Origin: an uncultured Candidatus Rokubacteria bacterium
GTDB lineage: Bacteria > Methylomirabilota > Methylomirabilia > Rokubacteriales > CSP1-6
Assembly (NCBI GenBank): GCA_963771355.1
Contig: CAVYTA010000005.1
Span: forward strand, 608,001 to 672,000
DNA: 64,000 nt
Direction of reading: 5' to 3'
Positions 1 through 17,910 of the stretch are shown here, one piece after another; position 1 is the first letter of the stretch, and each line of letters begins with the position of its first letter. Under the pieces are notes generated by a model. That model did no database searches. It was not told where the DNA came from and saw nothing but the letters and a program-made list of their open reading frames with translations. A program made the translations under genes and the position numbers.

Positions 1-86
1 GCCAGGGTCACCGTCACCAGCGGGCGGCGGCAGGACAGCCGAACGAGCCGGCGAAGCAAGCGACCGGTTCGCGAGATGGCAATCAT
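1..86 (-). CDS. 5' fragment of a membrane protein, possibly an MMPL/RND hopanoid transporter (HpnN-like); runs off the window edge
   Basis: ATG at 86 gives MIAISRTGRLLRRLVRLSCRRPLVTVTL. This basic amphipathic stretch followed by 'RRP' and a hydrophobic helix is typical of MMPL-family N-termini. It follows ino1 in the shc operon. Only 28 codons are visible. Confidence 0.4.
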   Translation of the reverse strand, partial: MIAISRTGRLLRRLVRLSCRRPLVTVTL

Positions 87-123
87 GGGGCGTCGTCCGG
101 GCGGCGCACTCGGGGCGAGGGCG

Positions 124-1197
124 CTACTCGGCGGCGGCGATGAAGCGCGCGAGGCGCTCGTGCGCCTCGTCGTCCGACCATTGCTCGGGCGGGGACTTCA
201 TGAGATAGGCGGAGGGCGCGGCGAGCGCGCCCTTGAGGCCTCGGTCCATGGCCATCTTGCAGCAGCGGATGGCGTCGATGACCACGCCGGCGGAATTGGG
301 CGAGTCCCACACCTCCAGCTTCAGCTCGACATTGATGGGCTGATCGCCGAAACCGCGCCCTTCCAGGCGGATGTGGGCCCACTTGCGATCGGCCAGCCAC
401 GGCACGTAGTCGCTGGGCCCGATATGAATGGAGTCGTCCGACATCTCGTGGGCGAGCTGGGAGCGCACCGAGTCGGTCTTGGAGGTCTTCTTCGACTCCA
501 GCCGCGAGCGCTCGAGCATGTTGTAGAAGTCGGTGTTGCCCCCCACGTTGAGCTGGCTGGTCCGGTCCAGCCGGACCCCTCGGTCCATGAAGAGCCGGGT
601 CAGCACGCGGTGCACGATGGTGGCGCCCACCTGGGACTTCACGTCGTCGCCCACCACCGGGAGGCCCCGGTCTTCGAAGCGGCGTCGCCAGTACTCTTCG
701 CGAGCGATGAAGACCGGGATGCAGTTGACGAACCCGCAGCCGGCGTCGAGGATCTGCTCGACGTACCACTTGGTCGCCATCTCGCTGCCCACGGGCAGGA
801 AGTTCACCACCACGTCGGTGCGGGTCTCCCGCAGGATGCCCGCGATGTCGGCGGTGGAGCCGGTCGCTTTGGTGATCACCTGGGAGAGATAGTGCCCGAG
901 GCCGTCGTGGGTCATGCCCCGGTGGACGGGCACGCCCAGGTCGGGGACCTCCGCGAAGGACACCGTGTTGTTGGGCGCGGTGAAGATGGCCTTGGACAGG
1001 TCGGTGCCCACCTTGTGGGCGTCGATGTCGAAGGCGGCGGAGAATTCAATGTCGCCCACGTGGTAGGGACCCAGGCGCGGGCGCATGAGACCGGGGACGA
1101 ATCCGTCGTCCGGCGCGCTCCGGTAGTAGTGCACGCCCTGGACGAGGGCCGACGCGCAGTTCCCCACTCCCACGATCGCGACCCGCACTGCTCCCAC
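124..1197 (-). CDS. ino1: myo-inositol-1-phosphate (inositol-3-phosphate) synthase
   Basis: [16 protein letters not shown]ossmann start; [27 protein letters not shown] and WDSPNSAG motifs. GTG at 1197 has a GGAGG RBS. Confidence 0.95.
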
Positions 1198-1267
1198 GCG
1201 CGCCTCCAGGTGATGTGTCGTCCCGCGCAGCGCCACCGAGTCTAGCACATCGAGCCGGAGGGGACGG

Positions 1268-2269
1268 TTACCCCTCCGCGTTCTCGTCGATCATCGATGT
1301 CGGAACCGGCGTGGGTCGGGCGGAGAGCGCGGCGAGGGTGAGCAGCCCGGCGGTGGCCCAGGTGCCCTCGCGCAGTCGGCGCACCAGCGTGTAGGACAGG
1401 CCGATCGCCCCGCCGTAACCGAAGGCGGCGAAGATCGCCATGTTGCCCCCCTCCAGCGCGCCGAGCGAGCCGGGAATCATGAAGCTCGCGAACTTCACCG
1501 CCGCGCCGAACGACTCCATCACCACCGCGGTGAGGAGGGTCACCGGCAGACCGAGAAAGTTGAGCACGAGGTAGATCTCGAGACTCCCCACCGTCCACGC
1601 GAGGAGATGCACGAGGACCGCGCCCACCAGGCGGCCCCGATGGCCACGGTAGAAGCGCAACAGCGCGCGATCCAGCCCCTCCAGCCGCTCCTGATTGCTC
1701 GAGTTCGGTCCCATGCCGAACCGCGCGAGGAGCCGGCCCCCGCGTCCGGCCGCTCCGAGGAGCTGGACCACGACGAAGCCGGTCACCGCGAGGGCCTCGA
1801 GCCCCAGGAGAATGGTCATCCCGGTGAGCACGGGCCCCGACACCGGCACCAGGGTCCGCGCGAGGACAAGTCCCAGCACGAGGAAGAGGCCCTGGCCGGT
1901 GACGATCGCGGTCTTGTCCACGATGACGGCGGCCAGGCCCTCGGGCACCGGCACCCAGTGACGGAGGAGGAACGCCTTGACGGGCTCGCCGCCCACGGAG
2001 GCGATGGGCGTGGTCGCGTTCACCGCCTCGCCGGCGAGCCGCGCGGTCCAGATCTTGGCGAAGGGCGGCACGTGATCGACGAAGGCGAGCCGCCAGGCGG
2101 TGGCGTCCAGGGTGGCGGTGAGGGCGTAGGGAAAGCAGATCACCACCAGCAGCCGCCAGGACAGCGTCCGGATCGAGTCCAGGATGGTGGTGAAGCCGAT
2201 CTGGTGGCCGAGGTAGGCGATCACGCCCACGCCCACCACCACGATCAGCGGACGGAGCAGTCGTCCCAC
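1268..2269 (-). CDS. lysylphosphatidylglycerol-synthase-TM / flippase-like membrane protein (HpnL-like family)
   Basis: Multiple TM helices with [21 protein letters not shown] and [11 protein letters not shown] motifs of the LPG_synthase_TM family. Confidence 0.85.
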
Positions 2270-2302
2270 GGAGGCGCGGTCGGGATGGGGTCGCTCGGCC
2301 CG

Positions 2303-3493
2303 CTAGGACGCGGCCGTCCGGCCGCGGCGGATCCGGCCCACGCACGCGATCCAGTATGACTGCGAGCCGAGGGCCACCACGAGGGCCAGCGCGGGAAGGG
2401 TGGAGGGCGCCAGCCACCGGAGCAGGACGAAGCCGAGGAGCAGGAGATAGAAGAGATCGCGGTTGCCCATGTTCTTGAGCGCGCCGCCCACCGTCTCACC
2501 TACCGCGATCTCGCGCGGGAGGTAACGCGCGAAGAAGGCGCTGAGCGCCACGCCGGCCGATCCCAGCACGCCGATGACGGTGGTGACGGCTGGGCCCGCG
2601 GAGACCGCCATGCCCAGCACGAGCCCCGAGTGGATCACGGTATCGATGGCCCAGTCGAGGTGGGCGCCGAACCGTGACTCCTGGAAGGTCAGCCGGGCCA
2701 GCTCGCCGTCGCAGTGGTCCACCACGCAGGCCATCAGGTAGACCACCACGCCCGCCGCGGCGGACAGCGGCGTGGCGTGCCAGAAGGCCCACACCGCGCC
2801 GAGGCCGATGCTGAGGCTCAGCAGGCTCACCTGATTGGGCGTGGCCGGGGTGCGGACCAGGAGGCGCGTGAGTCCGCGCGAGAGCCGCCGGTGCAGGTAG
2901 GAGTCCACGCCGGTGTCGTTGTCGGTGCCGAGCCCGGCATAGAGGAGCCGGTCGGCCTCCATGAGATCGCCGCGCCCGCGCGCGCAGAAGCACAACCCGG
3001 CGGCGGTGACCTGCTTGAGTCGTGTGGCCTCCACGTGGCGCACGAGCACCTGGCCCAGGGGCTCGCCGGCGGCGAGGGCGCAGGCCAGCCGGTCTGCGGT
3101 GTCCCCCATGACGCGGAGGACGGGGGCGCCGGCTTCCAGGGACTCCGTCAGCGCGGTCTCGGCGGTCTCCGCGAAGTCGGCCAGCAGCGGGGCCAGGGTG
3201 CGCGCCTCCACCAGCGCGGCGGCGGGCACGAGCAGGCAGCCGCCGGCGGCGAGGGCGCGCACGGCGCCGGCGTCGCCAGCGCCGAGCCAGCGGACGCGGC
3301 CGCCGAGACCGCGGGTTCCGGCGAGCAGGCGCTCGAGCTCGGCGCTGCGGAGCTGCGCGGGCACGGCGACGATCTCCGCGCCGGCGCGCGCCGCCGCCAC
3401 GATGGCCCGGAGCGCGAGAGGACGACCGGCCACCGGCACCGCGGCGAGGGCGGTACTGGCCGAATCGGTCAGGTAGAGGACGACCGCGGCCAC
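2303..3493 (-). CDS. CDP-alcohol phosphatidyltransferase family protein with a degenerate N-terminal nucleotidyltransferase-like domain
   Basis: TPNQVS and the signature DHCDGELARLTFQESRFGAHLDWAID. N-terminal VAGRPLALRAI resembles the NTP-transferase fold. Confidence 0.9.
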   Translation of the reverse strand: MAAVVLYLTDSASTALAAVPVAGRPLALRAIVAAARAGAEIVAVPAQLRSAELERLLAGTRGLGGRVRWLGAGDAGAVRALAAGGCLLVPAAALVEARTLAPLLADFAETAETALTESLEAGAPVLRVMGDTADRLACALAAGEPLGQVLVRHVEATRLKQVTAAGLCFCARGRGDLMEADRLLYAGLGTDNDTGVDSYLHRRLSRGLTRLLVRTPATPNQVSLLSLSIGLGAVWAFWHATPLSAAAGVVVYLMACVVDHCDGELARLTFQESRFGAHLDWAIDTVIHSGLVLGMAVSAGPAVTTVIGVLGSAGVALSAFFARYLPREIAVGETVGGALKNMGNRDLFYLLLLGFVLLRWLAPSTLPALALVVALGSQSYWIACVGRIRRGRTAAS

Positions 3494-3494
3494 C

Positions 3495-4235
3495 TCAGTG
3501 CTCGAGCCGCTCGATCCGCGGCAGCACGTCGGTTTCCGCGCGGCGAAGGTCCTCGACGAAGTCCACCTCGGTCCACGGCAGGCCGGTGACGTCCACCCAG
3601 CCCACCGGCACGCGGGTGAGGAGCCGGTGCAGCGCGTCCTCGTACTCGTTGGTGCCGCCGGTCTCGTCGATGGACTCGCCGAGGAGCCGGATGTACTCTG
3701 CCGCGTGCTGGGTGCCGCACTTGAAGAAGCCGATGCCCTCGCCGACCACTTCCCAGTGCTCCGGCACGAACTTCTTGCCCAGCGCGATGACGCGATCGCC
3801 GACCCCGTAGAGCTTGACCTCCTCGCCGGTATCGGTGAAGCCGCGGTCGATCAGCAGCGCGCTGGGCGCCGGGCAGGCGATGAGGCGGGCGAGAAACGCG
3901 TGGGGGAAGAGGACGTCGGCGTCCATCACCAGCGTGTGGTCGCGGACGAGGGTATCGCGCGCGCGCCACAGGGACAGGATGGAGCCCTTCTGGTACTCGG
4001 GGTTCTCCACGAAGCTGATCCGCATGTCGCCGCGCCGCGTCCCTGCCGCCGCCCGCACCTGATCCTGGCAGTGGCCGACCACGATCACCGTCTCGTCCAC
4101 GCCGGCCGCGGCGAGGGAGCCCAGCATCCGGTCCAGCAGGGGCCGCCCCGCGATGGGCAAGAGACACTTGTGCGTGTGATCGGTCAGCGGGGCGAGCCGG
4201 CGCGCCACCCCCGCGGCGAGCACGATGGCCTTCAT
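3495..4235 (-). CDS. phosphocholine/phosphonate cytidylyltransferase family (NTP_transferase)
   Basis: MKAIVLAAGVARRL..HKCLLPIAGRPLL, MDAD and WTEVDFVEDL motifs. Confidence 0.9.
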   Translation of the reverse strand: MKAIVLAAGVARRLAPLTDHTHKCLLPIAGRPLLDRMLGSLAAAGVDETVIVVGHCQDQVRAAAGTRRGDMRISFVENPEYQKGSILSLWRARDTLVRDHTLVMDADVLFPHAFLARLIACPAPSALLIDRGFTDTGEEVKLYGVGDRVIALGKKFVPEHWEVVGEGIGFFKCGTQHAAEYIRLLGESIDETGGTNEYEDALHRLLTRVPVGWVDVTGLPWTEVDFVEDLRRAETDVLPRIERLEH

Positions 4236-5086
4236 CGCCCGCTCCCGGCGGCCACCCGCCCGAGGTCGCGCAGGGCCCCGCGAAACCGGTCCCGGATCTC
4301 CTCGGGCGGGTAGGGGATGCGTGGCGCCGGCTGCTCCTCCGGGGTGACCTTGGCCAGGATGAACGACGGGCCGTCCCCGCGCATGGCGGCGGCGGTGGCG
4401 TCGCGCAGCGCGGCCGCCTCCGTCACCGCGACCGTGGTGGCGTAGCCGGCGGCGGCGGCGAGCGCATCGAGACGCGCGTGGCGCGACGGGGACATCTGGT
4501 TACCGGTGGAGCCATACACCTCGTTGTCGAAGACGACGTGGACCAGGTTTCGCGGCCGCCGGCTTCCGGTAGTGCCCGCCCCGAGCACGGGTGCGCCGCC
4601 GATCATGGGCAGGATGCCGAGGTTCATGAGCAGGTTGCCGTCGCCGTCGAAGACCACGGTGGTGAGGTCGGGGCGGGCGAGCGTGACTCCGAGCCCGATG
4701 GCCGAGGCCAGCCCCATGGAGCCGATCATGTAGAAGTTCTGCGGCCGATCTCCCACCGAGAACGACTCGCGGCAGATGAAACCGTTGGCATGCACGACGG
4801 GCGCATCGCCGATCGCGCCGAGCGCGGCACGCAGCGCCTCCAGGCGCGAGATCCGGGGCGTCAGGTCAGCCCGCGAGGATTCGCGTGAGGGCGGACTTCC
4901 GACAATCACGCGCGGCGGTGAATCTCTGTCTGTTATCAGCGGGGGCCTCGAAATGGCCCCCGCTCTCCCCGTCCGCACTCGATGCGCGGGCCCCCGCTCT
5001 CCCCCCGTCCGCACTCGATGCGCGGATCGCCGCTTTCTCCCCGTCACCGCCGCGCGTGCCGTGCGCCCCCGATGCATGTTCTCCAT
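4232..5086 (-). CDS. phosphonopyruvate (or sulfopyruvate) decarboxylase-like beta, TPP-binding domain; probably the C-terminal half of a frameshifted fused gene
   Basis: NFYMIGSMGLASAIGLG and the TPP motif DGDGNLLMN..DNEVYGSTGNQ. Recognisable homology begins near 4850 (SRLEAL); the upstream part of the ORF is repeat-derived. Confidence 0.85.
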   Translation of the reverse strand: MENMHRGRTARAAVTGRKRRSAHRVRTGGERGPAHRVRTGRAGAISRPPLITDRDSPPRVIVGSPPSRESSRADLTPRISRLEALRAALGAIGDAPVVHANGFICRESFSVGDRPQNFYMIGSMGLASAIGLGVTLARPDLTTVVFDGDGNLLMNLGILPMIGGAPVLGAGTTGSRRPRNLVHVVFDNEVYGSTGNQMSPSRHARLDALAAAAGYATTVAVTEAAALRDATAAAMRGDGPSFILAKVTPEEQPAPRIPYPPEEIRDRFRGALRDLGRVAAGSGR

Positions 5087-5609
5087 GACCGCGCGTGGCT
5101 ATGACGCCGGGCGGGAGGAGCAGCGCCACCGGCTGGCTGAGGCGCTCCGCCTCCGCGCGGGCCCAGGCGATGTCGGCGGCCACGCTGCCGGCGGTGAGCA
5201 CGCGATGGGGCACCGCGATGAGCTCGAGGAGGCGCGGGGAGATGTCGCCCATCACGAGGTGCTCGGGGGCGTCCTTGCCCCCATGGCCGCGCCAGGTGAC
5301 GAGGAGCAGGGTGGGAAAGCGGTACATGAGCGACAGGGAGACCAGCGCGTTGAGGCTGGTGCCGAGCCCCGAGTTCTGCATGATCACCATGGGCAGGCGG
5401 CCTGCCATCCACGCCCCCGCCGCCAGGCCCACCGCGACGTCCTCGCGCACGGCGGGCACGTACGGCAGGCGGGGATGGGTCTCCAGCGCGGCGATGACCT
5501 CGCCCACCAGCGAGCAGGGCACGCCCGTGAAGAAGTCGAAGCCTTCCGACTCGGCGACGGCGACGAAGTCCTTCCCGCTGACGGCGCCTATTTCTTGATC
5601 TCCGCCCAG
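4866..5609 (-). CDS. phosphonopyruvate (or sulfopyruvate) decarboxylase-like alpha domain; start uncertain (CTG 5609 or ATA 5591)
   Basis: FFTGVPCS, REDVAVGLAAG, MQNSGLG and TWRGHGGKDAPEH motifs in the frame of ORF 4866..7136. There is no in-frame ATG/GTG/TTG between the upstream stop codon and the GVPC motif. Confidence 0.85.
   Translation of the reverse strand: MGGDQEIGAVSGKDFVAVAESEGFDFFTGVPCSLVGEVIAALETHPRLPYVPAVREDVAVGLAAGAWMAGRLPMVIMQNSGLGTSLNALVSLSLMYRFPTLLLVTWRGHGGKDAPEHLVMGDISPRLLELIAVPHRVLTAGSVAADIAWARAEAERLSQPVALLLPPGVIATRGHGEHASGAHGTRGGDGEKAAIRASSADGGRAGARASSADGESGGHFEAPADNRQRFTAARDCRKSALTRILAG
4935..5045. repeat. palindromic REP-like element with a tandem ~35-bp duplication, inside the decarboxylase linker
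   Basis: 10-bp perfect stem AGCGGGGGCC-7nt-GGCCCCCGCT at 4938-4964, plus two copies of ggcccccgctct(C4 or C6)gtccgcactcgatgcgcg. The same element occurs at 42553-42636. Confidence 0.85.
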
Positions 5610-7252
5610 GCCCGCTGATAGTCCTCGAAGGTATCCACCTCGAGCCAGCCCTTGTAGACGTCCACGCAGTGGACCCGCTCGCCGCGCGCCACCAGCTCCT
5701 GGAGGAGGTCGGTGAAGGCCGCGTGCTCGGCGGAGTCCGCCTCGTGGAAGCGCCCGCCGCCGGCCGCCCGCGCCTCGTCCCAGGCGCGCCGGAGCGCCTG
5801 GGTCCCGCCCTCGGAGAAGAGCGCCATGCCGATGAACTCGCCGTTGGCGCGATCCGGCGCCACCCGGGCGCCCACGGTGACGAGGGTGTCGTCGCCCCCG
5901 CTGGTCAGCGCACGCAGGCCGGAGGCGGGCGCCTGCTCCGTCACCACGAGGTCCAGCGGCTTCGAGAGCGGCAGCAGGCGGTCGCGCTGGTCCACCCACG
6001 CGCGGTCCACCACCACCGCGCAGTCCGCCTCCGCGCGGAGGAGCCGCTCGAGGACGGAGCGCTCGAAGAGGATGTCCGAGTAGAGGAACAGCACGCGCCC
6101 GGACAGCACCGGCGCGGCGGCGAAGAGGGACACGCACTCCCCGCTCTCCTCGTAGCGGTCGTTGTCGAAATAGCGCAGGCCGGGCACGGTGACCTCTTCC
6201 TTCCGGTATCCGCGCACCACCGCGATGTCCTGCACCCCGCACGCGCGCAGGGTGTCCACCTGCCGCTCGAGGATGGTGCGCCCCTTGATGTCCAGCATGC
6301 ACTTGGGCCGGTTTTCCGTGAGCGGCAGCAGCGACTTGCCCGAGCCGGCGGCAATGATCACCGCGCGCACCTGGCTCTCCTGCGGCAGGTACTCCGCCTC
6401 GATGGCCTCGAACTCCGCCACCCCCACGTGCCGATAGATCTCCTCCAGCGGCACGATGTGCGGGTCCAGCGCGTCCAGCCGGCGCTCGCGCGCGAGGGTG
6501 CCCAGCGTGGTCTCCATGCCGCGCACCGCGCCCCGCAGCACCTGGTTGGCCCAGATCACCATCTTCACCCCCGCGCCCTCCAGCTCCTCGAAGGTCACGG
6601 AGGGATAGAGGGTGGGCACCACCACCACCGGCGTGGGGCGCTCCCAGAGGCGCATGAACTCCAGCACCTCCGCCGCCGTCTTCGACTTGGAGTGCATGAG
6701 GATCATGTCGGCCCCCGCGTCCGCATAGGCGTGGGCGCGCCGGAGCGCCTCCTTCATGCCCCAGCCCGCGATGAGGGCCTCCACCCGCGCGATCACCACG
6801 AAATCCGGGTCCCGGCGCGTCTTCACCGCGGCCCGGATCTTTCCCGCGAACTCCTCCACCGACAGGAGCTCGCGCCGCATGCCCGGATAGAGGCTGCACT
6901 TCTTGGGGAAGATATTGTCCTCCATGCAGATCCCCGCCACCCCGGCGCGCTCGTACTCCTCCACCGTGCGCACCACGTTGACGACGTTGCCGTAGCCGTT
7001 GTCGGCGTCGGCGATGACGGGAATGGACACCGCGTCGTTGATGTAGCGGGCGGTCTCGAGGTTCTCCGTCATGGTGAGCAGGTTCACGTCCGGCATGGCG
7101 CGCTGGGCCGCCGACACCGCGAAGCTCGACGACCACACCAGGGGGAACCCGGCGGCCTCGATGAGGCGGGCGGACAGCGCGTCGTGGGCGCCGACCATGG
7201 GGACGAGCCCCGGACGGCGGAGAAGCGAGCGCAACAGGGCGGCCTTGGTCAT
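5588..7252 (-). CDS. pepM: phosphoenolpyruvate mutase-like (ICL/PEPM superfamily) domain fused to a C-terminal nucleotidyltransferase
   Basis: GAHDALSA, DADNGYG, ARVEALIAGWGMKEALRRA..Y.DAGAD.ILMHSK and VVVPT are PepM-like; the active-site loop is EDNIFPKKCS. C-terminal IIAAGSG..PKCMLDIKG..YSD..WLEVDTFEDY is an NTP transferase. Confidence 0.8.
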   Translation of the reverse strand: MTKAALLRSLLRRPGLVPMVGAHDALSARLIEAAGFPLVWSSSFAVSAAQRAMPDVNLLTMTENLETARYINDAVSIPVIADADNGYGNVVNVVRTVEEYERAGVAGICMEDNIFPKKCSLYPGMRRELLSVEEFAGKIRAAVKTRRDPDFVVIARVEALIAGWGMKEALRRAHAYADAGADMILMHSKSKTAAEVLEFMRLWERPTPVVVVPTLYPSVTFEELEGAGVKMVIWANQVLRGAVRGMETTLGTLARERRLDALDPHIVPLEEIYRHVGVAEFEAIEAEYLPQESQVRAVIIAAGSGKSLLPLTENRPKCMLDIKGRTILERQVDTLRACGVQDIAVVRGYRKEEVTVPGLRYFDNDRYEESGECVSLFAAAPVLSGRVLFLYSDILFERSVLERLLRAEADCAVVVDRAWVDQRDRLLPLSKPLDLVVTEQAPASGLRALTSGGDDTLVTVGARVAPDRANGEFIGMALFSEGGTQALRRAWDEARAAGGGRFHEADSAEHAAFTDLLQELVARGERVHCVDVYKGWLEVDTFEDYQRAWAEIKK

Positions 7253-7277
7253 GATGAGTTCCCTCGCGCGCGCCGGA

Positions 7278-7922
7278 CTAGGGAGTCCGGGGCGCCGGCT
7301 TTTTCTTGGGATCGTCGTCCAGCGACACCTCGGCCTGCTTGCTCTTCATGCGCCGGATGAGCTCGCCGTAGGAGGCGGTCTGGATGATCTTGTTGAACTG
7401 CGTGCGGTAGTTGGACACCAGGCTCACGCCTTCGATGCTGACGTCGTAGACGAGCCAGCGCTCGCCGCGCTTGACCAGCCGATAGTCGATGGGCACCTCG
7501 GTGCCGTTCTTGGTGACGAGCCGGGTGCTCACCACGCTGTTGTCGCTCTCGATCTTCTCGCCGGTGTAGAGGATCTTCTCCCCGCCGTACTGGTCGATCT
7601 TGGAGATGTAGGACCGTTCGAGGAGATCGGCGAAGAGCGAGACGAACTCCTCGTGCTCCGCGTCGGTGCGGCCCTGCCAGTGGCGGCCGAGGGAACGCCG
7701 CGCGATCTCGCCGAAGTCGAAGATCTCGTTGGCGATCTTGCGCACGGCGGCGCGCCGCTCCTGCACCCGGTTCTCGCCCTTGTACAGGGGGTTCTCGAGG
7801 GTCTTGACCACCCGCTCGATGGCGCCCTTGAGCTGGTCCGTGGGGATGCCGGCGCTGGCCACGGGCGCCAGCAGCACCACCAGCGCGGCCACCGCTACAC
7901 CGATCATGCGAGCACGAATCAT
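7278..7922 (-). CDS. mlaC: MlaC/Ttg2D/HpnM-family periplasmic lipid-binding protein
   Basis: Signal peptide; FDF.EIARRSLGRHW and WLVYDVSIEGVSLVSNYRTQF motifs. GGAGG RBS before ATG 7922. Confidence 0.9.
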   Translation of the reverse strand: MIRARMIGVAVAALVVLLAPVASAGIPTDQLKGAIERVVKTLENPLYKGENRVQERRAAVRKIANEIFDFGEIARRSLGRHWQGRTDAEHEEFVSLFADLLERSYISKIDQYGGEKILYTGEKIESDNSVVSTRLVTKNGTEVPIDYRLVKRGERWLVYDVSIEGVSLVSNYRTQFNKIIQTASYGELIRRMKSKQAEVSLDDDPKKKPAPRTP

Positions 7923-7959
7923 CGGGAACCCTCCACTGTCTGCCGTGACATGGTCGCCG

Positions 7960-8400
7960 CTATACCTTTCCGAAGACGTACTTCGAGAGCAGCTCCTCGA
8001 TGTCCACCGGCGGCTCCACTTCCGTGATCCGGCCGTTGGGCTTGATGATCTTCTCCGATCCGCCGGGGTTGATCCGGATGTACTTCTCGCCGATGAGCCC
8101 ACGCGTCTTGATGGACGCGATCGAGTCTTCCTGCAGCTTCACATCGGTCCTGATGCTCATGATCACGCGGGCCTGGTAGTCCGACAGGGTGATGCCGTCT
8201 ACGCGCCCGATCTCCACCCCCGCGATCTCCACGGTGGAGCCCGTCTTGAGCCCTCCCACGGTGGGGAAGTCCGCGGTGATGGTGTAGCCGCCGCCGCTGA
8301 AGAGCTCCACCCGCCCGAGCTTGATGGAGAGCCAGCCCAGCGCAAGGATGCCGACCAGCACGAATACCCCCACCGCCATGTCCAGCGTCGACCGTCTCAT
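7960..8400 (-). CDS. mlaD: MlaD (MCE domain) protein
   Basis: N-terminal TM; GGLKTGSTVEIAGVEIGRV and TRGLIGEKYI MCE motifs. Confidence 0.93.
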   Translation of the reverse strand: MRRSTLDMAVGVFVLVGILALGWLSIKLGRVELFSGGGYTITADFPTVGGLKTGSTVEIAGVEIGRVDGITLSDYQARVIMSIRTDVKLQEDSIASIKTRGLIGEKYIRINPGGSEKIIKPNGRITEVEPPVDIEELLSKYVFGKV

Positions 8401-8481
8401 TCGGCGCCCCCTGATTGGATCTTGCCGTGCCTGGCGCGCATCGTCTACCTCTTTTCCTGGCCCCCGTGCGCGGACGGGGTC

Positions 8482-9228
8482 TCAGCGAGCCGTCGGCGCG
8501 CTCTCGATCTCGCCGCGGATGAACTGCTGCACCACCGGATTCGCGGAGGCCTGGATGCCCTCCGGGGTGGCACATTCCACGATCACCCCGTCGTGGAGCA
8601 TGGCCACGCGGTCCGCGATCCGGAAGATCTCCGGGATCTCGTGGCTCACCACCACCGCGGTGAACCGAAACTTCCGGTGCAGCTCCACGATCAGGTGATG
8701 GATGGTGTTGACCAGGATGGGGTCCAGGCCGGTGGTGGGCTCGTCGAAGAAGACCACCCCCGGCTCTGTCACCAGGGCCCGCGCGATGGCCACCCGCTTG
8801 CGCATGCCGCCCGAGATCTCCGCCGGGTTCTTGTGCCCCATGCCCTGGAGGCCCACCTGCACGAGCTTTTCCTCCACCCGCTGCCGGACCTCGGTCGCCG
8901 GGATGCGGACCTTTTCCCACAGGGGAAAGGCCACGTTCTCGAATACCGACATGGAGTCGAAGAGGGCGCCGCCCTGGAACACCACCCCGTAGCGCTCGCG
9001 GATGCGGTCGAGCGCGGAGCGTCGCAGCCGGGTGATCTCGGTGCCGTCCACGAAGATGCGACCCGAGTCGGGCCGCAGCAGGCCCACCAGGTGCTTGAGC
9101 AGCACCGACTTGCCGCCCCCGCTCCGGCCGATGATCACGATGATCTCACCGGAGGCGACCTCCAGGTCGATGCCGCGCAGCACGGGCTGGGCGCCGAACG
9201 ACCGCCGCAGGTCTTCCACCTTGATCAT
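8482..9228 (-). CDS. mlaF: MlaF ABC ATPase
   Basis: Walker A GRSGGGKS, ISGGMRKRV, FDEPTTGLDP. ATGA overlap with the mlaE stop. Confidence 0.93.
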   Translation of the reverse strand: MIKVEDLRRSFGAQPVLRGIDLEVASGEIIVIIGRSGGGKSVLLKHLVGLLRPDSGRIFVDGTEITRLRRSALDRIRERYGVVFQGGALFDSMSVFENVAFPLWEKVRIPATEVRQRVEEKLVQVGLQGMGHKNPAEISGGMRKRVAIARALVTEPGVVFFDEPTTGLDPILVNTIHHLIVELHRKFRFTAVVVSHEIPEIFRIADRVAMLHDGVIVECATPEGIQASANPVVQQFIRGEIESAPTAR

Positions 9229-10022
9229 GGCAGTACCGAGCCCAGGAAGTAGTCCCACACGAGGATGAGGACCGAGGACAGCACCACCGCCTGGGTGGTC
9301 GCGCGCGCCACCCCCTCCGCCCCGTGCCCGCAGTAGTAGCCCTTGTAGGTGCACACCCAGGTGACGATGATGCCGAAGGAGAGCGACTTCCAGAAGCCGG
9401 TCATGATATCGGTCCGGTCCACGAAGGTCTGCATCTCCCCGAAGTAGGTCCCGGGGGACAGGCCCAGCAGCTCCACTCCCACCAGGTACCCGCCCAAGAT
9501 GCCCACCACGTCGAAGATCGCCGTCATGAGCGGGAAGGTGATGATCCCGGCCACGATGGGCGGGACTATCAGATAGCGCACGGGGTTGAGCGCCATCACG
9601 GTGAGGGCGTCGATCTGCTCGGTGATCTTCATGATCCCGAGCTCGGCGGTGAGTGCCGATCCGGCCCGGCCGGTGACGATGAGGGCGCAGAGAACGGGTC
9701 CCAGCTCGCGGATGATCGACAGCGCGACCGCGGGGCCCAGGAAGGCCTCGGAGCCGAACCGCGAGAGCACGAAGAAGATCTGGAGCCCGAGCACCATGCC
9801 CGTGAAGGCGCCGGTCAGGATCACGATGGTGAGCGAGCGGAAGCCGATGAAGTGGATGCGCTCCACCAGGCGGGCGAGCTTGAAGGGAGGAACGAAGATA
9901 TAGGTGATCGCCTGGACCAGGAAGCGGCCGAAGCGACCCATGGACTGCAGCACCTGGAGGGTCCCGGCCCCGAGCCCTCCGATGAGGCGGACCGGCAGTG
10001 CGCCGGCGACCGGCCCCGTCAT
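9225..10022 (-). CDS. mlaE: MlaE ABC permease
   Basis: RELGPVLCAL..GRAGSALTAELGIMKITEQIDAL and GAEGVARATTQAVV motifs. ATG 10022 overlaps the shc stop (ATGA). Confidence 0.93.
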   Translation of the reverse strand: MTGPVAGALPVRLIGGLGAGTLQVLQSMGRFGRFLVQAITYIFVPPFKLARLVERIHFIGFRSLTIVILTGAFTGMVLGLQIFFVLSRFGSEAFLGPAVALSIIRELGPVLCALIVTGRAGSALTAELGIMKITEQIDALTVMALNPVRYLIVPPIVAGIITFPLMTAIFDVVGILGGYLVGVELLGLSPGTYFGEMQTFVDRTDIMTGFWKSLSFGIIVTWVCTYKGYYCGHGAEGVARATTQAVVLSSVLILVWDYFLGSVLP

Positions 10023-11992
10023 CCGCACGCGGTCCGATAGACCCCCAGCGCCCAGAGGGGGAAGTACTTGGCGTACAGGTGATACTTGAGATAGAAGACG
10101 CGGGGAAAACCGGTGCCGTTCCAGAGCGGGTCCGCCCACGCCCCCTCCTCGCGCTGCGTGTCGAGGAGATACTGGATGCCGCGCTCCACCACGGGGCCGG
10201 TGGTGCGGCCGGCGGCGAAGAGCCCCAGCAGCGCCCACGCGGTCTGGCTCGGGATGGACTCTCCACGCCCCGCCCACGCGGGATCCTCGTAGGAGGCCAA
10301 CGTCTCGCCCCAGCCGCCGTCGGCGTTTTGCCGCGCTTCCAGCCACGCCACCGCGCGGCTCACGTACTCCCTCGAGCAGTCCTCGCCCATGGCGCGCAGC
10401 CCGCGGAGTACCGACCAGGTACCGTAGATGTAGTTCGCGCCCCAGCGGCCGTACCACGGCCCGTCCGCGTGCTGATTGCGGCGGAGATAGCCCAGCGCGC
10501 GCAGGGCGGCGGGATGGTCGAGCGTCTCACCCAGCATGCCCAGGAGCTCGAGGCCCCGCCCGGTGAGGTCCTCGGTGGAGGGATCGAGCAGGGCGCCGTG
10601 ATCGGCGAAGGGGATATTGTTCAGGATGAGCCGGTTGTTGTCGGCGTCGAAGGACGCCCAGCCGCCGTCCGAGCCCTGCATGCCCAGGAACCAGGCCATG
10701 CCGCGCGTGAGCGCGCGCCGGCGGCGCTCGGCGTCGAGGCCCTCGGTGCGGCTCAGCGCCATCATCACCATCGCGGAGTCGTCGAGATCCGGATAGAAGT
10801 CGTTGTGGTACTGGAACGGCCAGCCGCCGGGCGGCACGCCGGGCCGCTTGGTCGTCCAGTCCCCGGGCACCGTGATCTGCTTGTCGATCATCCACTCGCC
10901 GGCGCGCACCAGGGAGTGATGGTCGGCGGGAAGGCCGGACTCGATGAGCGCGTTGACCGCCAGCGCGGTGTCCCACACCGGCGACACGCAGGGCTGATAG
11001 TGCAGCGAGGTCGTGGTCTCGACCCCCAGCGCCTCGACCTCCTTCAGCTGGCCGCGGATCAGGGGATGGTCCTCGTCATAGCCGAGGCAGCGCAGCGCCA
11101 GCACCGCGTTCACCATGGCGGGGAAGATCCCGCCCAGGCCGCCCGGCACGGCCAGGCGCTCCTCCACCCACCGGCGCGCGGCGTCGAGCGCGCGGGCGCG
11201 CAGCGGACGCGGGCCCAGCCGCTCCCACCCCTTCAGCGCGTCGTCCACGCCGATGAAGAAGTTCTTCCAGAGAAAGGTCTTCGGCGAGAAGGGGCGGGGG
11301 ACGCGGTGGAAGCGGAGGCTGGCCCGCTCGCGCGGCACCACCCACAGCTCGTCCAGGCGCGCGGAATCGGGCAGGCGCATGACGGGCTTGGCGTCCATCA
11401 GGATGATTAGCGGCACGATGACCGCCCGCGACCAGTAGGAGACCTCGAGGAGGTTGAAGTACGACCAGCGGGGCAGCAGCATGATCTCCACCGGCATGGC
11501 GGGGATGCCCGACCAGTCGTATTCCCCGAACTGCGCGAGGAGGATCTTGGTGAAGACATTGGCCTGCACCGGCCCGCCGAGCTGATGGATCAGCGCTCGC
11601 GCACGGACCATGGCGAGATCCTCCGGCGACACGCCCGCCAGCTTCATGGCGAAATACGCCTTGATGGTCGCGGAGAGGCTGGCCGGTCCGCCCTCGTAGA
11701 GACTCCAGCCCCCATCGGCGAGCTGCTGCGCGCGGAGGTACGTCACGATCTTGGCCTCGCGCTCGCGATCGACGCGATCCATGAGGCGGCCGAACAGAAG
11801 GTACTCGCTGGTGATGGTGCTGTCCGCCTCCAGCTCGCCCACCCAGTGTCCGTCCGGCTCCTGCGTGGAGAGGAGCAGCGCCTGGGCGCGCTCGATCGCG
11901 GCATCCACGCGCGACGACGCCGCGCGCGCCGGCGCCGCCCCCGCTGAGGGCGCGTGTTTCGCGCGGATCGACTCGGTTTTCGGGGCGAACAT
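10019..11992 (-). CDS. shc: squalene-hopene cyclase
   Basis: QxxDGGW repeats, SPVWDTA, catalytic YPDLDDSA (DxDD), GRWGANYIYGT and GTGFPRVFYLKY. Confidence 0.97.
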   Translation of the reverse strand: MFAPKTESIRAKHAPSAGAAPARAASSRVDAAIERAQALLLSTQEPDGHWVGELEADSTITSEYLLFGRLMDRVDREREAKIVTYLRAQQLADGGWSLYEGGPASLSATIKAYFAMKLAGVSPEDLAMVRARALIHQLGGPVQANVFTKILLAQFGEYDWSGIPAMPVEIMLLPRWSYFNLLEVSYWSRAVIVPLIILMDAKPVMRLPDSARLDELWVVPRERASLRFHRVPRPFSPKTFLWKNFFIGVDDALKGWERLGPRPLRARALDAARRWVEERLAVPGGLGGIFPAMVNAVLALRCLGYDEDHPLIRGQLKEVEALGVETTTSLHYQPCVSPVWDTALAVNALIESGLPADHHSLVRAGEWMIDKQITVPGDWTTKRPGVPPGGWPFQYHNDFYPDLDDSAMVMMALSRTEGLDAERRRRALTRGMAWFLGMQGSDGGWASFDADNNRLILNNIPFADHGALLDPSTEDLTGRGLELLGMLGETLDHPAALRALGYLRRNQHADGPWYGRWGANYIYGTWSVLRGLRAMGEDCSREYVSRAVAWLEARQNADGGWGETLASYEDPAWAGRGESIPSQTAWALLGLFAAGRTTGPVVERGIQYLLDTQREEGAWADPLWNGTGFPRVFYLKYHLYAKYFPLWALGVYRTACG

Positions 11993-11998
11993 CGGTCC

Positions 11999-12491: not shown

Positions 12492-13508
12492 ATGAGTGTG
12501 CCGGTCTCGCAGATGTGGACAGTGGCGACCTACGTGCTCCGCCAGCGGCTGGCGGGGCGCAAGCGCTATCCGCTCGTCCTCATGCTCGAGCCGCTGTTCC
12601 GGTGCAACCTCGCCTGCGCCGGGTGCGGGAAGATCCAGTACCCCGCCCAAGTGCTCCGCAAGCACCTTGCGGTGGAGAAGTGTCTTCAGGCGGTGGAGGA
12701 GTGCGGCGCCCCCATGGTCAGCATTCCCGGCGGCGAGCCGCTCATGTATCCGGAGATCGACCGGCTGGTGGCCGAGCTGGTGAAGCGGAAGAAGTACGTC
12801 TATCTCTGCACTAACGCCATCCTCCTCAAGGAAAAGCTCGACCTCTTCACCCCCTCCAAGTACCTGTCCTTCAGCGTGCACATGGACGGACTCCGAGAGG
12901 AGCACGACGAGGCGGTGTGCCGGGACGGGGTTTACGACCAGGCGGTGCCGGCCATCCAGGAGGCGCTCGCCCGCGGCTTCCGGGTCACCACCAACACCAC
13001 GCTCTTCGACGGGGCCTCACCGCTGCGGGTGCGCGCGTTCTTCGATGAGATGATGCACCTGGGCGTGGAGGGGATGATGGTGTCGCCGGGCTACAGCTAC
13101 TCGAAGGCGCCCGACCAGGAGCACTTCCTCCGGCGGAGCCGGACCAGCCAGCTCTTCCGCGCGATCCTCTCGAATCCCAAGAAGCACTGGCGCTTCAACC
13201 AGTCCCCGCTCTTCCTTCGCTTTCTCATGGGCAAGCAGGACTACGAGTGCACGCCCTGGGGGAACCCGACCTACAACATGTTCGGCTGGCAGCGGCCGTG
13301 CTATCTCCTGCAGGACGGCTACGCGGAAACCTTCGCCGAGCTGATGGAGACCACGCCCTGGGAGAACTACGGGCGCAAGAGCGGCAACGAGAAGTGCCAG
13401 GATTGCATGGTCCACTGCGGGTTCGAGGCCACCGCGGTACACCACACCTTCAACTCCGCGCGCGGCTTCGCGGAGACGGTGCTGGTCACCATCACCGGAA
13501 AGCTCTGA
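12492..13508 (+). CDS. hpnH: adenosylhopane synthase, radical SAM
   Basis: RYPLVLMLEPLFRCNLACAGCGKIQYP (CxxxCxxC), CTPWGNPT and CMVHCGFE motifs. GAGGAG RBS. Confidence 0.95.
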   Translation: MSVPVSQMWTVATYVLRQRLAGRKRYPLVLMLEPLFRCNLACAGCGKIQYPAQVLRKHLAVEKCLQAVEECGAPMVSIPGGEPLMYPEIDRLVAELVKRKKYVYLCTNAILLKEKLDLFTPSKYLSFSVHMDGLREEHDEAVCRDGVYDQAVPAIQEALARGFRVTTNTTLFDGASPLRVRAFFDEMMHLGVEGMMVSPGYSYSKAPDQEHFLRRSRTSQLFRAILSNPKKHWRFNQSPLFLRFLMGKQDYECTPWGNPTYNMFGWQRPCYLLQDGYAETFAELMETTPWENYGRKSGNEKCQDCMVHCGFEATAVHHTFNSARGFAETVLVTITGKL

Positions 13509-13515
13509 GCCGGGC

Positions 13516-13842
13516 GTGAGCCTGCAGGGCTGGGTGCCCGACATCGGACCGTACCTCACCCTCGAGGAGGTCATCGAGCACGCCTTCGACTATCGCGGCA
13601 ACGTGACGGTCGTGCGGCGGGACGGCTCCGAGCTGGTGGGCTACCTCTTCAACCGCGACTCGAGCGCGCCCGAGCCGTTCGTCCAGCTCATCGACGAGGA
13701 CGGCAACGGTCCCCTCCGGGTGCGCTACGCCGAGATCGCCAGCGTGCGGTTCACGGGCAAGGACACCGCCGAGGGCAATTCGTGGAAGGCCTGGATCGAG
13801 CGCAAGGAGCGCGAGAAAGCGCAGCCCGCGCCCGACGCGTAG
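13516..13842 (+). CDS. small hypothetical protein in the hopanoid operon (possible Sm/SH3-like beta barrel)
   Basis: 108-aa ORF tightly packed between hpnH and hpnG; AFDYRGNVTVVRRDGSELVGYLFNRD. Confidence 0.75.
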   Translation: MSLQGWVPDIGPYLTLEEVIEHAFDYRGNVTVVRRDGSELVGYLFNRDSSAPEPFVQLIDEDGNGPLRVRYAEIASVRFTGKDTAEGNSWKAWIERKEREKAQPAPDA

Positions 13843-13846
13843 GCGC

Positions 13847-14578
13847 GTGAGCGATCTCCTCATCCTGACGGCCGTCGAGCTCGAGGCCGCGGGGCTGGCC
13901 CGCGAGCTCGAGCTGCCCGCCGAGGCCGCGCGGGCGCACCGTGCCTCGGATCGCTCCTCTCCCTATCGCTCCTACGGCCGGCCCGGCCTCCGCATCGTCC
14001 CCGTCGGCCTGGGCGCGCTCCTCCTCTCCGAGCGCTGGGCCGCCTGCCGGGACGGATTCACGGCGCCCCTCGTGATCTCCGCCGGCGTGTGCGGGGGACT
14101 CGACCCGCGCCTGGCCCCCGGCGACCTCGTCGTGCCCGCGCGCGTCCTCGCTCCCGACGGCGAGACGCTGGCGGTGGCGCCGGCGGCGCATGCGCGGGCG
14201 CTCGCGGCGGCGGGGACGGCGGCCACCGGCACCCTCGTGACCACCCTGACCGTGGTGGGCTCGCCCGCCGCCAAGGCCGCGCTCCGGTCCGCCACCGGCG
14301 CGGAGGCGGTGGACATGGAGTCCGCCGCCATCCTCGCCGCCGCGCAGGCGGACGGGCTGGAGGCGGTGGTCGTACGCGCTGTATCCGACGGGGCCGCGGA
14401 GTCGGTGCCGGCCGAGCTCTCGGCGCTCCTGGGCCCGGAGGGGCGGCTGCGCGGCGGACGCGCGCTCCTTCTTGCGCTCACCCGCCCGCAGGCCTTGCCT
14501 CGCGCCCTCGAGCTCCGGCGCGGCAGCCGCCGCGCGCTCGCCGCGGTGGCGCGCGTCCTGGCGGCCCTGCGGGCCTAG
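13847..14578 (+). CDS. hpnG: hopanoid-associated nucleoside phosphorylase/nucleosidase
   Basis: PNP_UDP_1 motifs ISAGVCGGL, AVDMESAA and VRAVSD; located downstream of hpnH. Confidence 0.8.
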   Translation: MSDLLILTAVELEAAGLARELELPAEAARAHRASDRSSPYRSYGRPGLRIVPVGLGALLLSERWAACRDGFTAPLVISAGVCGGLDPRLAPGDLVVPARVLAPDGETLAVAPAAHARALAAAGTAATGTLVTTLTVVGSPAAKAALRSATGAEAVDMESAAILAAAQADGLEAVVVRAVSDGAAESVPAELSALLGPEGRLRGGRALLLALTRPQALPRALELRRGSRRALAAVARVLAALRA

Positions 14579-14581
14579 CCG

Positions 14582-15589
14582 ATGCGCGCCCTGGTGACCG
14601 GCGGCACCGGCTTCGTGGGCGCCAACCTCGTGCGCGAGCTGCTCGCGGACGGCGACCGCGTGCGCGTGCTCGCGCGCCCGGGCGGCGACCGCCGCGCGCT
14701 GGAGGACTGCGACGTGGAGATCGCGGAGGGCGATCTCCTCGACCCCGCCTCGGTGCGCCGCGCGGTGGCGGGCGTCGAGCGCGTCTTCCACGTAGCCGCC
14801 GACTATCGCCTGTGGGCGCCCGATCCCGCCGCACTCTTCCGGGCCAACGTGGACGGCACCCGGCACGTGCTCGAGGCGGCGGTGGCGGCGGGGGTGGAGC
14901 GGATCGTGTATACCTCCACCGTGGGCGCGCTGGGCATCCCCAAGGACGGCGCTCCCGGCGACGAGCGGACGCCGGTGTCGCTCGCCGACATGGTCGGGCC
15001 CTACAAGGCCTCGAAGTTCGTGGCGGAGGCGGTGGCCCGCGAGTTCGCGGCGCGGGGCGCACCGGTGATCATCGTGAACCCGTCGGCGCCGGTGGGCCCG
15101 TGGGACGTGAAGCCCACCCCCACCGGCCAGATGATCGTGGACTTCCTGCGGGGCAAGATGCTGGGCTCGCTCGACACCGGCCTCAACGTCGTCCACGTGC
15201 GCGACGTCGCCCGCGGGCACATCCTCGCCGCCCAGCGCGGGCGCCTGGGTGAGCGCTACGTGCTCGGCCACGTGAATCTCACGCTGCTGGAGATCTTTCA
15301 GGCTCTCGCCCGCCTCACCGGCGTGGCCGCCCCGCGCTTCCGCGTGCCGTACGCCGTCGCCTGGCTGGCCGCCGCCGGTATGGAAGGCGTGGCCCGGCTC
15401 ACGGGGGGCACGCCGGCGGTGCCGCTCACCGCGGTCCGGATGGCGCGCAAGCGCATGTTCTTCAGCGTGGACAAGGCGGTGCGCGAGCTCGGGCTGCCGC
15501 AGACGCCGGTGGAGCGCGCGCTGGGCGACGCGGTGGACTGGTTCGTGGCGCGGGGCTATGCGCCCGCGCCGCGGCGGCGGGCGGCGTGA
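14582..15589 (+). CDS. hpnA: hopanoid-associated NAD-dependent epimerase/dehydratase
   Basis: VTGGTGFVG, HVAADYRLW, YKASK and PVGPWDVKPTPTG motifs. Confidence 0.9.
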   Translation: MRALVTGGTGFVGANLVRELLADGDRVRVLARPGGDRRALEDCDVEIAEGDLLDPASVRRAVAGVERVFHVAADYRLWAPDPAALFRANVDGTRHVLEAAVAAGVERIVYTSTVGALGIPKDGAPGDERTPVSLADMVGPYKASKFVAEAVAREFAARGAPVIIVNPSAPVGPWDVKPTPTGQMIVDFLRGKMLGSLDTGLNVVHVRDVARGHILAAQRGRLGERYVLGHVNLTLLEIFQALARLTGVAAPRFRVPYAVAWLAAAGMEGVARLTGGTPAVPLTAVRMARKRMFFSVDKAVRELGLPQTPVERALGDAVDWFVARGYAPAPRRRAA

Positions 15590-16467: not shown

Positions 16468-16470
16468 CCC

Positions 16471-16838
16471 GTGCGCGCCGCCGTCTATCTCGGCGCGGGC
16501 CGCCTCGAGCTGCAGGACTGGCCCGAGCCGTGTTCGAGGACGAGGGGGCGCCGGCGGCGGCCCTCGCCGAGGCCACCGAGGGCCGCGGCGTCGACGTGGC
16601 GGTGCTGACCGCGGGCGGCGCCGCCGCAGTGGGGGCGGCCGCGGCGGCGGTGCGGGACGGCGGCCAGGTGCATTGCTTCGCGGGTGGGGGCGCGGGCCCG
16701 CTGCCCGTCCCGCTCGATACCGTCTATCACCGCGAGCTGACGATCACCGCGACGTATTCCGCCTCTCTCGCGGAGCTGGCCGAGGCCGTCATCCTCATGC
16801 GCCGGCAGGAAGCGCTGAAGGTCTACGTCACGCCATGA
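16471..16838 (+). pseudogene. Zn-dependent alcohol dehydrogenase remnant with a large internal, frameshifting deletion
   Basis: GTG 16471 gives VRAAVYLGAGRLELQDWPEP (MDR N-terminus). It is joined at ~16530, in another frame, to an MDR C-terminus (TEGRGVDVAV..RDGGQVHCFAG..YHRELTITATY..LKVYVTP). The Zn-binding core and GxGxxG motif are missing. Confidence 0.75.
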
Positions 16839-17878: not shown

Positions 17879-17903
17879 GCCAGCGAGCGGCGTCCGGTAT
17901 ACT
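17875..17903 (+). promoter_or_regulatory. sigma70-type promoter for a leaderless ispH transcript
   Basis: TTGAGC-17nt-TATACT, 7 nt, then ATG(17911). No SD. Confidence 0.65.
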
Positions 17904-17910
17904 GCCTCGC

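Follow-up and report, generated by a model that had tools for sequence, protein, structure and literature searches.

The stretch of DNA analyzed here (hereafter the window; 64,000 nucleotides, G000:C5:608001-672000) comes from an uncultured bacterium of the soil Rokubacteria whose 5.5 Mb genome, G000, is 99.8% complete; G-numbers denote genomes of the Rokubacteriales set and L-numbers the loci or DNA stretches compared. The locus under study consists of 12 co-oriented minus-strand genes in the order shc-mlaEFD-mlaC-mutase/CT-ppd-CT-CDP-AP-hpnL-ino1-hpnN (Table 1), in which the mutase is of the phosphoenolpyruvate (PEP) mutase (Ppm) family, CT is a cytidylyltransferase and CDP-AP a CDP-alcohol phosphotransferase, and we propose that it may be a hopanoid synthesis-and-export operon carrying an inserted phosphonate module of the Group 1 type described below. 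With the starts chosen, successive intergenic gaps are -4, -4, 81, 37, 25, 5, -4, 1, 33, 70 and 37 nucleotides, and from this spacing we infer one transcript for the 12-gene run. A preliminary description of the same DNA had listed at least 11 co-oriented genes in this order, all of which were found on the minus strand as given; its spacing of about 70 nucleotides or less, or overlaps, holds for ten of the gaps and fails for mlaF-mlaD, at 81 nucleotides. The MMPL-like start that it placed at the window edge is the 5' end of a 916-amino-acid HpnN-like gene, which continues 2.7 kb past the edge and ends at G000:C5:605336, head-to-head with malate synthase, and the divergent hpnH-G-A-D-ispH run was confirmed, with a 108-amino-acid open reading frame (ORF) and adh genes in addition. 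The setting is that of a hopanoid cluster, with shc and hpnH above their cut-offs and hpnG-, hpnA-, hpnD-, hpnM- and hpnN-like neighbors. A promoter/terminator scan and an Rfam search returned nothing above chance. Contigs from two rhizosphere RNA runs (one study) closely match several operon genes, and some span gene borders; they were not used as support, since they carry no strand or single-transcript information and DNA carry-over is possible.

Table 1. Features of the locus and of the divergent gene run, in window coordinates, with profile or structure matches.
Feature	Position	Strand	Evidence
shc, squalene-hopene cyclase (backbone)	10019..11992	-	TIGR01507 784 bits, cut-off 431
mlaE permease (backbone)	9225..10022	-	PF02405; TIGR00056 above cut-off
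mlaF-like ABC ATPase (backbone)	8482..9228	-	PF00005; top NCBIfam match MlaF, under cut-off
mlaD (backbone)	7960..8400	-	TIGR04430 150.5 bits, cut-off 135
mlaC/HpnM-like periplasmic lipid shuttle (backbone)	7278..7922	-	PF05494; TIGR03481 91 bits, under cut-off 160
PEP-mutase-family domain (amino acids 1-290) + LicC/PntC-like CT fusion	5588..7252	-	PF13714 + PF12804
phosphonopyruvate-decarboxylase-like ppd, frameshift near 4970	4232..5582	-	halves match TIGR03297
REP-like hairpin element within ppd linker	4907..5058	.	15-nucleotide perfect inverted repeats flanking; z = -4.7
stand-alone PntC-like CT	3495..4235	-	PF12804; best full-length PDB match 6PD1
CDP-AP with N-terminal extension	2303..3493	-	PF01066; intact DxxDGxxAR...GxxxDxxxD; PDB matches AF2299, IPCT/DIPPS
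HpnL-like/LPG-synthase-TM flippase-like	1268..2269	-	PF03706; TIGR03476 168.9 bits, cut-off 195.65; TIGR00374 above cut-off
ino1, inositol-3-phosphate synthase	124..1197	-	PF01658; sole copy in genome
hpnN-like RND/MMPL transporter, 5' end	1..86	-	TIGR03480 581 bits, cut-off 752
divergent run hpnH, 108-amino-acid ORF, hpnG, hpnA, hpnD, truncated adh, adh, ispH	12492..18915	+	

The gene that would open the phosphonate pathway encodes a PEP-mutase-family domain fused to a nucleotidyltransferase, and to that extent the 'pepM' of the preliminary description stood; the canonical EDKx5NS motif, however, is missing and the loop reads EDNIFPKKCS (family pattern EDNxFPKxCS), which is the most unusual trait of the locus and one that the preliminary description had overlooked. 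Among the best 120 database homologs, 110 showed EDNxFPKxCS, one had Ser for Cys and nine had no match. The variant Cys coincides with the Cys of the K[KR]CGH loop of lyases, where it is catalytic. The top PDB matches of the mutase domain were PEP mutases and a phosphonopyruvate (PnPy) hydrolase, and that of the C-terminal domain was LicC (1JYK). Residues kept in the variant (Mytilus numbering) are W44, S46, D58, D85, D87, E114, K120, S123, R159 and H190, and in the window mutase the Mg ligands (D58, D85, D87, E114) and the phosphonyl-binding residues (R159, H190, S123, K120) are all present, roles being assigned after PMC7916636. While E114, K120 and S123 formed part of the search pattern, W44, D58, D85, R159 and H190 are independent of the selection, and these five are present in every one of the 73 variants (D87 in 66); H190 sets the variants apart from four methylisocitrate-lyase-type rows. 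The PF13714 plus PF12804 architecture is shared with Ppm/PepM/AepX (PDB 1M1B, 5UNC) and with Ppm-PntC fusions (Rice et al., 2019; PMC6697681). Because its loop departs from EDKx5NS, the variant is missed by mutase surveys, which as described in PMC6697681 and PMC8942020 retain only genes with that motif.

In a 37-row tree, variants, canonical mutases and PnPy hydrolases fell on one side and the lyases on the other (100/99), and canonical mutases plus hydrolases formed their own branch (98/99) with the variants outside; the canonical reference set in the trees was small (13 and 8 rows). We keep the placement of the variants outside canonical mutases plus hydrolases as the arrangement that these alignments suggest. 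The idea that the Cys variants are ancestral, with canonical mutases arising from among them, was drawn by the free trees (variants monophyletic in 0% of 200 bootstraps) and was not upheld: when the variants were constrained to one group, the log-likelihood of the tree rose by 6.0 (p-AU 0.64), and their monophyly was not rejected. The likeness to lyases and to carboxyphosphonoenolpyruvate mutase is confined to the Cys, given that S123 is present, that H190 stands where those enzymes have an acidic residue, and that the branch is separate. Likewise, a hydrolase would have the Thr of EDKx5TS where the variant has Cys, and the gene is fused to a CT beside ppd, not a stand-alone catabolic one. Measured against the relative G001, dN/dS was 0.085 for the mutase and 0.076 for ino1, and the variant mutase is under purifying selection. 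A single-sequence structure model (mean pLDDT 42.8) was unusable. The canonical mutase motif was not found in G000, nor in four of five other carriers tested, two Sorangium genomes and Minicystis among those four; in G000, the two Sorangium genomes and Minicystis the variant is thus the sole candidate for C-P bond formation beside ppd. Taken at sequence level, it is probably a functional mutase. Elsewhere in the order, five relatives, L029-L033 (four from family f4, one from f1), have an unrelated mutase-CT fusion with the canonical EDKx5NS motif, located outside the hopanoid operon and in four cases beside ppd.

The variant extends well beyond Rokubacteria. A pattern scan of GTDB returned at least 120 stretches, from which about 440 were estimated, with the motif inside an ORF in 112 of 120; among the matches listed, the phyla or classes were Rokubacteria, Nitrospirota, Binatia, Myxococcota (Sorangium, Minicystis), Planctomycetota, Acidobacteriota, Actinomycetota and Omnitrophota. 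Neighborhoods within a 10-kb radius were computed, using a gene caller by which the genes of the window were correctly recovered, for 80 loci with long flanks, 72 of which had the motif in an ORF. The results showed that 56 of these 72 were C-terminally fused to a CT, 46 had ppd and 36 a second CT, and that CDP-AP lay nearby in 27, a transaminase for 2-aminoethylphosphonate (AEP; the transaminase, AEPT) in 24 and hpnL in 13, numbers that are lowered by short contigs. L106, a contig with the same operon and a mutase sharing 96% identity with that of the window, bears the title of an archaeal metagenome-assembled genome (MAG); it is probably misbinned, and was counted with Rokubacteria on sequence identity. 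Stand-alone variants occur in L073 and L108 (Tepidisphaeraceae/Armatimonadota), with an aminotransferase and other enzymes nearby, and in the archaeal MAG L050, with two B12 radical SAM genes and ppd; L050 was left out of the hopanoid-neighbor count given below, its radical SAM genes not having been shown to be HpnJ. These three contexts could possibly represent small-molecule phosphonate clusters that motif filters miss. A prenyltransferase/squalene-cyclase-repeat protein of about 320 amino acids directly follows or lies near the variant mutase at L074:11404-12369 and at eight other loci, in Binatia and two others.

These neighborhoods bear on the alternative that the Cys variant is a hydrolase or a lyase-like enzyme and not biosynthetic, the downstream genes tailoring lipids with AEP salvaged from soil. 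The absent EDKx5NS motif, the presence of PnPy hydrolases (44-46% identity) among the best plasmid matches, an AEP ABC transporter and degradation genes in the genome, and the persistence of CT, CDP-AP, hpnL or ppd in relatives that have no mutase are all compatible with it. We nevertheless regard it as unlikely: the CT fusion and the adjacency to ppd counted above speak for synthesis, a hydrolase would compete with Ppd for substrate, the hydrolase model gave 260 bits against a cut-off of 374 with the hydrolase Thr missing, the hydrolases branch with canonical mutases and apart from the variants, and the low dN/dS argues in the same direction.

The gene set around the variant corresponds to a known cluster type. 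The 'Burkholderiales_CDP-OH' family is identical with the Group 1 phosphonolipid type of Yu et al. (2013), as cited by Li and Horsman (2022; PMC8942020). Its core consists of genes for Ppm, Ppd, AEPT, a 2-oxoglutarate (2OG) oxygenase and two PntCs, one of them as a fusion with Ppm, plus two phospholipid genes (PMC8942020). Exactly this set is present on plasmid pBRH01 of Mycetohabitans rhizoxinica (NC_014718.1), and seven proteins matched one-to-one with identities of 37% (mutase), 38-39% (Ppd), 36% (stand-alone CT), 37% over 128 amino acids (CDP-AP), 31% (HpnL), 51% (2OG oxygenase) and 42% (AEPT of G018). Shared with Group 1 are thus the Ppm-PntC fusion, Ppd, the second PntC, CDP-AP and the LPG-synthase-TM protein, together with AEPT and the 2OG oxygenase, which here are in the genome and in relatives inside the operon. 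The differences are that the mutase carries EDNxFPKxCS, whereas the ppm genes from which the family was assembled had been filtered by motif (PMC8942020), that AEPT and oxygenase lie outside the operon in this genus, that CDP-AP is long, with an N-terminal extension, and that the module is embedded in an shc-mla operon with ino1 and hpnN. The preliminary description had held the gene arrangement to be undescribed, which does not apply to the gene set, and a terpene link for it had already been speculated upon (PMC8942020). Its proposal of a C-P head-group pathway acting on a lipid alcohol, on the other hand, is borne out by the conserved synteny and by the one-to-one match to the canonical aepX-aepY-AEPT-CDP-OH cluster.

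Where the preliminary description had seen separate alpha and beta genes for Ppd, the window contains one frameshifted gene. Of 19 related loci (drawn from two tools, with possible overlap), 16 have both halves within a single ORF; the three exceptions are a locus in which all genes are frameshifted, one with a gap of N and one that the gene caller read as a single 391-amino-acid ORF. The frameshift falls within the G run of a hairpin resembling repetitive extragenic palindromic (REP) elements, in the linker between the halves. Copies of the hairpin occur at about 16 other places in G000, and the G-run lengths of the genome-wide pattern matches include 4 (two), 5 (seven) and 6 (twelve). Relative to the window, the linker occurs inverted in relatives, where the hairpin is in frame in either orientation, and in contigs of public runs; its length and sequence are highly variable within the genus, and both orientations occur within contigs of single public runs. 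Among the public-run contigs listed, none covers the ppd linker. The gene has no in-frame ATG, GTG or TTG start, and an in-frame ATA overlaps the mutase stop (5580-5592), likewise in G003, an arrangement which suggests that translation may be coupled to that of the mutase with a rare start codon.

Ppd of the fused relatives scored 282-293 bits on TIGR03297 (cut-off 312.5; L022, 281.6). That the module might act on sulfonates, by ComDE-like sulfopyruvate decarboxylase chemistry, is hinted at by the C-terminal decarboxylase half of the window's protein, which gave 160.7 bits on sulfopyruvate decarboxylase beta versus 145.3 on Ppd. The fused relatives, however, reach 90-94% of the Ppd cut-off versus 73-81% of the ComD/ComE cut-offs, the neighbors are AEP-type aminotransferases and PntC-like CTs, and we know of no cytidylylated sulfonate donor, so that this explanation is extremely unlikely. 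The PDB match of the stand-alone CT, 6PD1, is a nucleotidyltransferase/class V aminotransferase, which we take to be Treponema PntC.

No AEP aminotransferase is present within the window, as the preliminary description had noted; the step that it took from there, to a head group that is perhaps not AEP, is countered by PhnW at G000:C5:807 kb, about 190 kb away in a phnA-phnY-phnW-phnS cluster, and by AEPT inside the operon in G018 and G028. Ten of the 11 variant-carrying relatives have an AEP aminotransferase match. In addition, a gene for a 2OG-Fe(II) oxygenase lies at G000:C5:602.8 kb, two genes past hpnN, and in G018 and G019 its counterpart forms part of the operon. Given PhnW in the genome and AEPT in the operon of these relatives, AEP, possibly 1-hydroxylated, is the likely head group.

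Comparison with relatives, in which the synteny proposed as a check in the preliminary description was found to be conserved, resolved the operon into two layers; the 41-genome tallies include the unpublished G016, on which no separate claim is based, and related genomes are not independent. The shc gene is present in 38 of 41 genomes. The mutase fusion (at least 72% identity) is present in 11 of 40 relatives, namely all seven of the genus plus G018, G019, G022 and G028, and in all 11 mlaC directly precedes it. We also examined shc loci in 20 relatives that do not carry the variant, 11 from the same family and nine from family f4. All 20 kept shc-mlaE-F-D, and ten of the 11 same-family loci reached ino1-hpnN, with nothing between mlaC and ino1 in three, ppd only in three and CT with CDP-AP and/or hpnL in four. 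The f4 loci end in CT in nine of nine cases, none with ino1, and seven of the nine lie close to genes for an AEP aminotransferase and a PhnA-like protein. The shc and mla backbone is order-wide, with ino1-hpnN following it in this family, and the patterns at variant-free loci indicate piecemeal loss of the phosphonate module, the hopanoid backbone having remained stable. In L172, L174 and L179, mlaC and ino1 are separated by ppd, and the locus has no mutase.

The backbone itself shares shc, hpnH/G/A/D, HpnM-, HpnL- and HpnN-like genes and a distant hpnJ with known hopanoid hpnL/M/N clusters and the HpnI-HpnK-HpnJ pathway (PMC12324291), and differs from them in the full mlaEFD within the shc operon, in HpnJ without HpnI/HpnK and in the inserted phosphonate and CDP-AP genes.

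The preliminary description had named inositol among the possible carriers of a C-P head group, and with ino1 in the same operon one could envisage ino1, the second CT and CDP-AP as an IPCT/DIPPS-like unit yielding an inositol-phosphonate diester or an inositol-bearing lipid. The unit would share a nucleotidyltransferase, a CDP-AP fold and a nearby ino1 with IPCT/DIPPS (2XME, 4MND) and AF2299 (4O6M); 4MND is among the PDB matches, and the top NCBIfam match of CDP-AP is the bifunctional IPCT/DIPPS model NF041135, although at 53-79 bits versus a cut-off of 580, and without co-distribution with ino1. Distribution points the other way. Among the same-family genomes ino1 is present in 23 of 24 versus the mutase in 10 of 24, and in three of 11 family loci, from which CT, CDP-AP and ppd are missing in between, it still adjoins hpnN; it was not found in 13 f4 genomes, in which all nine shc loci examined end in CT, and within 10 kb of the mutase it was found at none of 65 non-Rokubacteria loci. 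Two CTs are likewise present in the canonical Mycetohabitans cluster, with no ino1 annotated in the stretches read. A separate PIP-synthase-like gene at G000:C8:77.5 kb is a natural consumer of inositol phosphate and explains ino1. Since ino1 follows the backbone, is decoupled from the mutase and is accompanied by this separate gene, inositol is probably a passenger outside the phosphonate module, and both the IPCT/DIPPS-like unit and the head group that it would make are very unlikely.

From these observations, a pathway can be proposed in which the Cys-variant mutase would convert PEP to phosphonopyruvate, and Ppd would decarboxylate the latter to phosphonoacetaldehyde and so pull the mutase reaction. 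PhnW would then aminate phosphonoacetaldehyde to AEP, the 2OG-Fe(II) oxygenase may hydroxylate C1, and one or both CTs would form the CMP conjugate (CMP-AEP), from which CDP-AP would move the head group onto a membrane lipid alcohol, most likely of the diacylglycerol type. HpnL would flip the product, with HpnN/Mla carrying envelope lipids outward. That a phosphonate head group is made de novo and placed on a lipid, whatever the acceptor, appears likely from the gene content. The complete scheme with a glycerolipid-type, non-hopanoid acceptor is offered more tentatively, somewhat short of an even chance, its catalytic steps, co-transcription and acceptor all being read from sequence.

Several observations weigh against this scheme. 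The mutase lacks the defining motif (K116N, N122C, with Ser also replacing G47 in this lineage), and scores 293.6 bits on TIGR02320 (cut-off 319.55), and most authors, according to PMC7916636, tie the difference between mutase and hydrolase to Asn122, which is Cys here. Ppd scores are under their cut-off, and ppd is frameshifted in this assembly, by error or mutation. The only AEP transaminase in G000 lies in what is a catabolic phn cluster, and three myxobacterial carriers have no AEP transaminase above the cut-off. In several relatives ppd or CT/CDP-AP/hpnL persists at a locus that lacks a mutase, and no product of this cluster type is reported as characterized in the account of PMC8942020. 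Finally, the CDP-APs of Sorangium and planctomycetes fall in other subfamilies than the window's enzyme, so that the missing shc of these carriers says little about its acceptor.

The main competing view concerns that acceptor. By the same pathway, CDP-AP could act on a C35 hopanoid polyol to give an (aminoethyl)phosphonate ester of bacteriohopanetetrol, flipped by HpnL and exported by HpnN/Mla. A hopanepolyol acceptor is plausible on gene content and a serious possibility. The module sits between mlaC and hpnL-ino1-hpnN inside an shc operon, and hopanoid genes occur within 10 kb in nine of 65 non-Rokubacteria loci from several lineages (shc/hpnG/hpnA in L071, hpnA in three Nitrospirota, hpnK in two and hpnI/hpnJ in three). 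The canonical Mycetohabitans cluster likewise adjoins a hopanoid cluster (MMPL transporter, hpnH, hpnA, shc, hpnD). A phosphonate-terpene link has been speculated upon for Nitrosococcus, in a cluster with squalene cyclases (PMC8942020), the Nitrosococcus source giving, where it treats the cluster, only an antiSMASH 'phosphonate-terpene' label (PMC7285500), which is also reported for Pandoraea (PMC5987411). Runs of a paralogous long CDP-AP with hpnL and hpnJ occur in six of nine f4 loci, partially in two more, and a CDP-AP-hpnL-hpnI-hpnJ run in G017. G000 has HpnJ (C5:560.9 kb) and no HpnI, HpnK or HpnB above the cut-off; HpnJ is present in 32 of 41 genomes versus HpnI in five of 41, so that the usual substrate route of HpnJ is missing in most Rokubacteriales searched. 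The function of HpnL is listed as unknown in PMC12324291, where a role in polyol side-chain decoration is suggested.

Against a hopanoid acceptor, half of the other carriers tested, 25 of 50 (from 50 of the 65 loci), gave no squalene/oxidosqualene cyclase match, among them two complete Sorangium genomes that also lack HpnJ. Of eight HpnL-linked non-Rokubacteria carriers, several of them small MAGs, four have a cyclase, which is no better than the background. The hpnJ-adjacent CDP-APs are paralogous (about 33% identity) and join the window clade with weak support, the co-location of envelope-lipid genes could reflect co-regulation, and no phosphono-hopanoid was found described in the literature searched, which took in few subscription journals and no supplements. 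We favor a non-hopanoid acceptor because half of the other carriers have no cyclase and the module is lost while the backbone stays. The hopanoid polyol ester accordingly ranks as possible but doubtful, and the fuller version, in which the variant mutase starts an AEP pathway, CDP-AP esterifies hopanetetrol in place of HpnI, HpnL flips the product and HpnN/Mla export it, as slightly more doubtful still.

Seen in a near-complete genome, the locus adds the layered operon, the piecemeal loss of the module, an ino1 that is decoupled from it, an AEPT encoded in trans and an HpnJ that occurs without HpnI; in the same literature, no description of a Cys-variant mutase was found. The Group 1 cluster type is among the commonest known. 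Since phosphonate producers are counted through the EDKx5NS filter (PMC6697681, PMC8942020), such counts would omit, should the Cys variant prove active, a branch with an estimated 440 or so stretches in GTDB genomes. This has a bearing on phosphorus cycling in soils and waters and on the way in which C-P bond formation arose from the lyase superfamily; Sorangium cellulosum So ce56 and Minicystis rosea are cultured carriers in which this could be tested. If the acceptor were a hopanoid, the locus would define a new class of composite hopanoids, give HpnL a function and explain HpnJ without HpnI.

Further features were observed around the hopanoid genes. The 108-amino-acid ORF (13516-13842), with no Pfam or NCBIfam match, separates hpnH from hpnG in practically every Rokubacteriales locus examined. 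A CruF-like gene (PF04240) stands between hpnH and shc in most relatives (e.g., L028:1732-2463) and is absent from 11993-12491 in the window, with no match elsewhere in G000. A second squalene-hopene cyclase, common to the genus and outside any hopanoid cluster, is located at G000:C4:165.3 kb. After hpnD comes a tandem pair of Zn-alcohol dehydrogenases (16467-17878), the first about 220 N-terminal residues shorter than in L042, and a comparable pair lies upstream of the mutase in L071; the two enzymes are candidate aldehyde reductases, acting either on hopanoid side chains or in phosphonate chemistry. A second module, not found in G000, is present in relatives (L171:10440-16033, L262:4584-12909, L169, L175/L263), often beside hpnN, and encodes a HAD phosphatase, a nucleotidyltransferase, a 280-amino-acid protein, a class III aminotransferase, a Gfo/Idh oxidoreductase, a paralogous CDP-AP, a CopD-domain protein and sometimes HpnL; it is possibly a route from inositol to an aminocyclitol head group.

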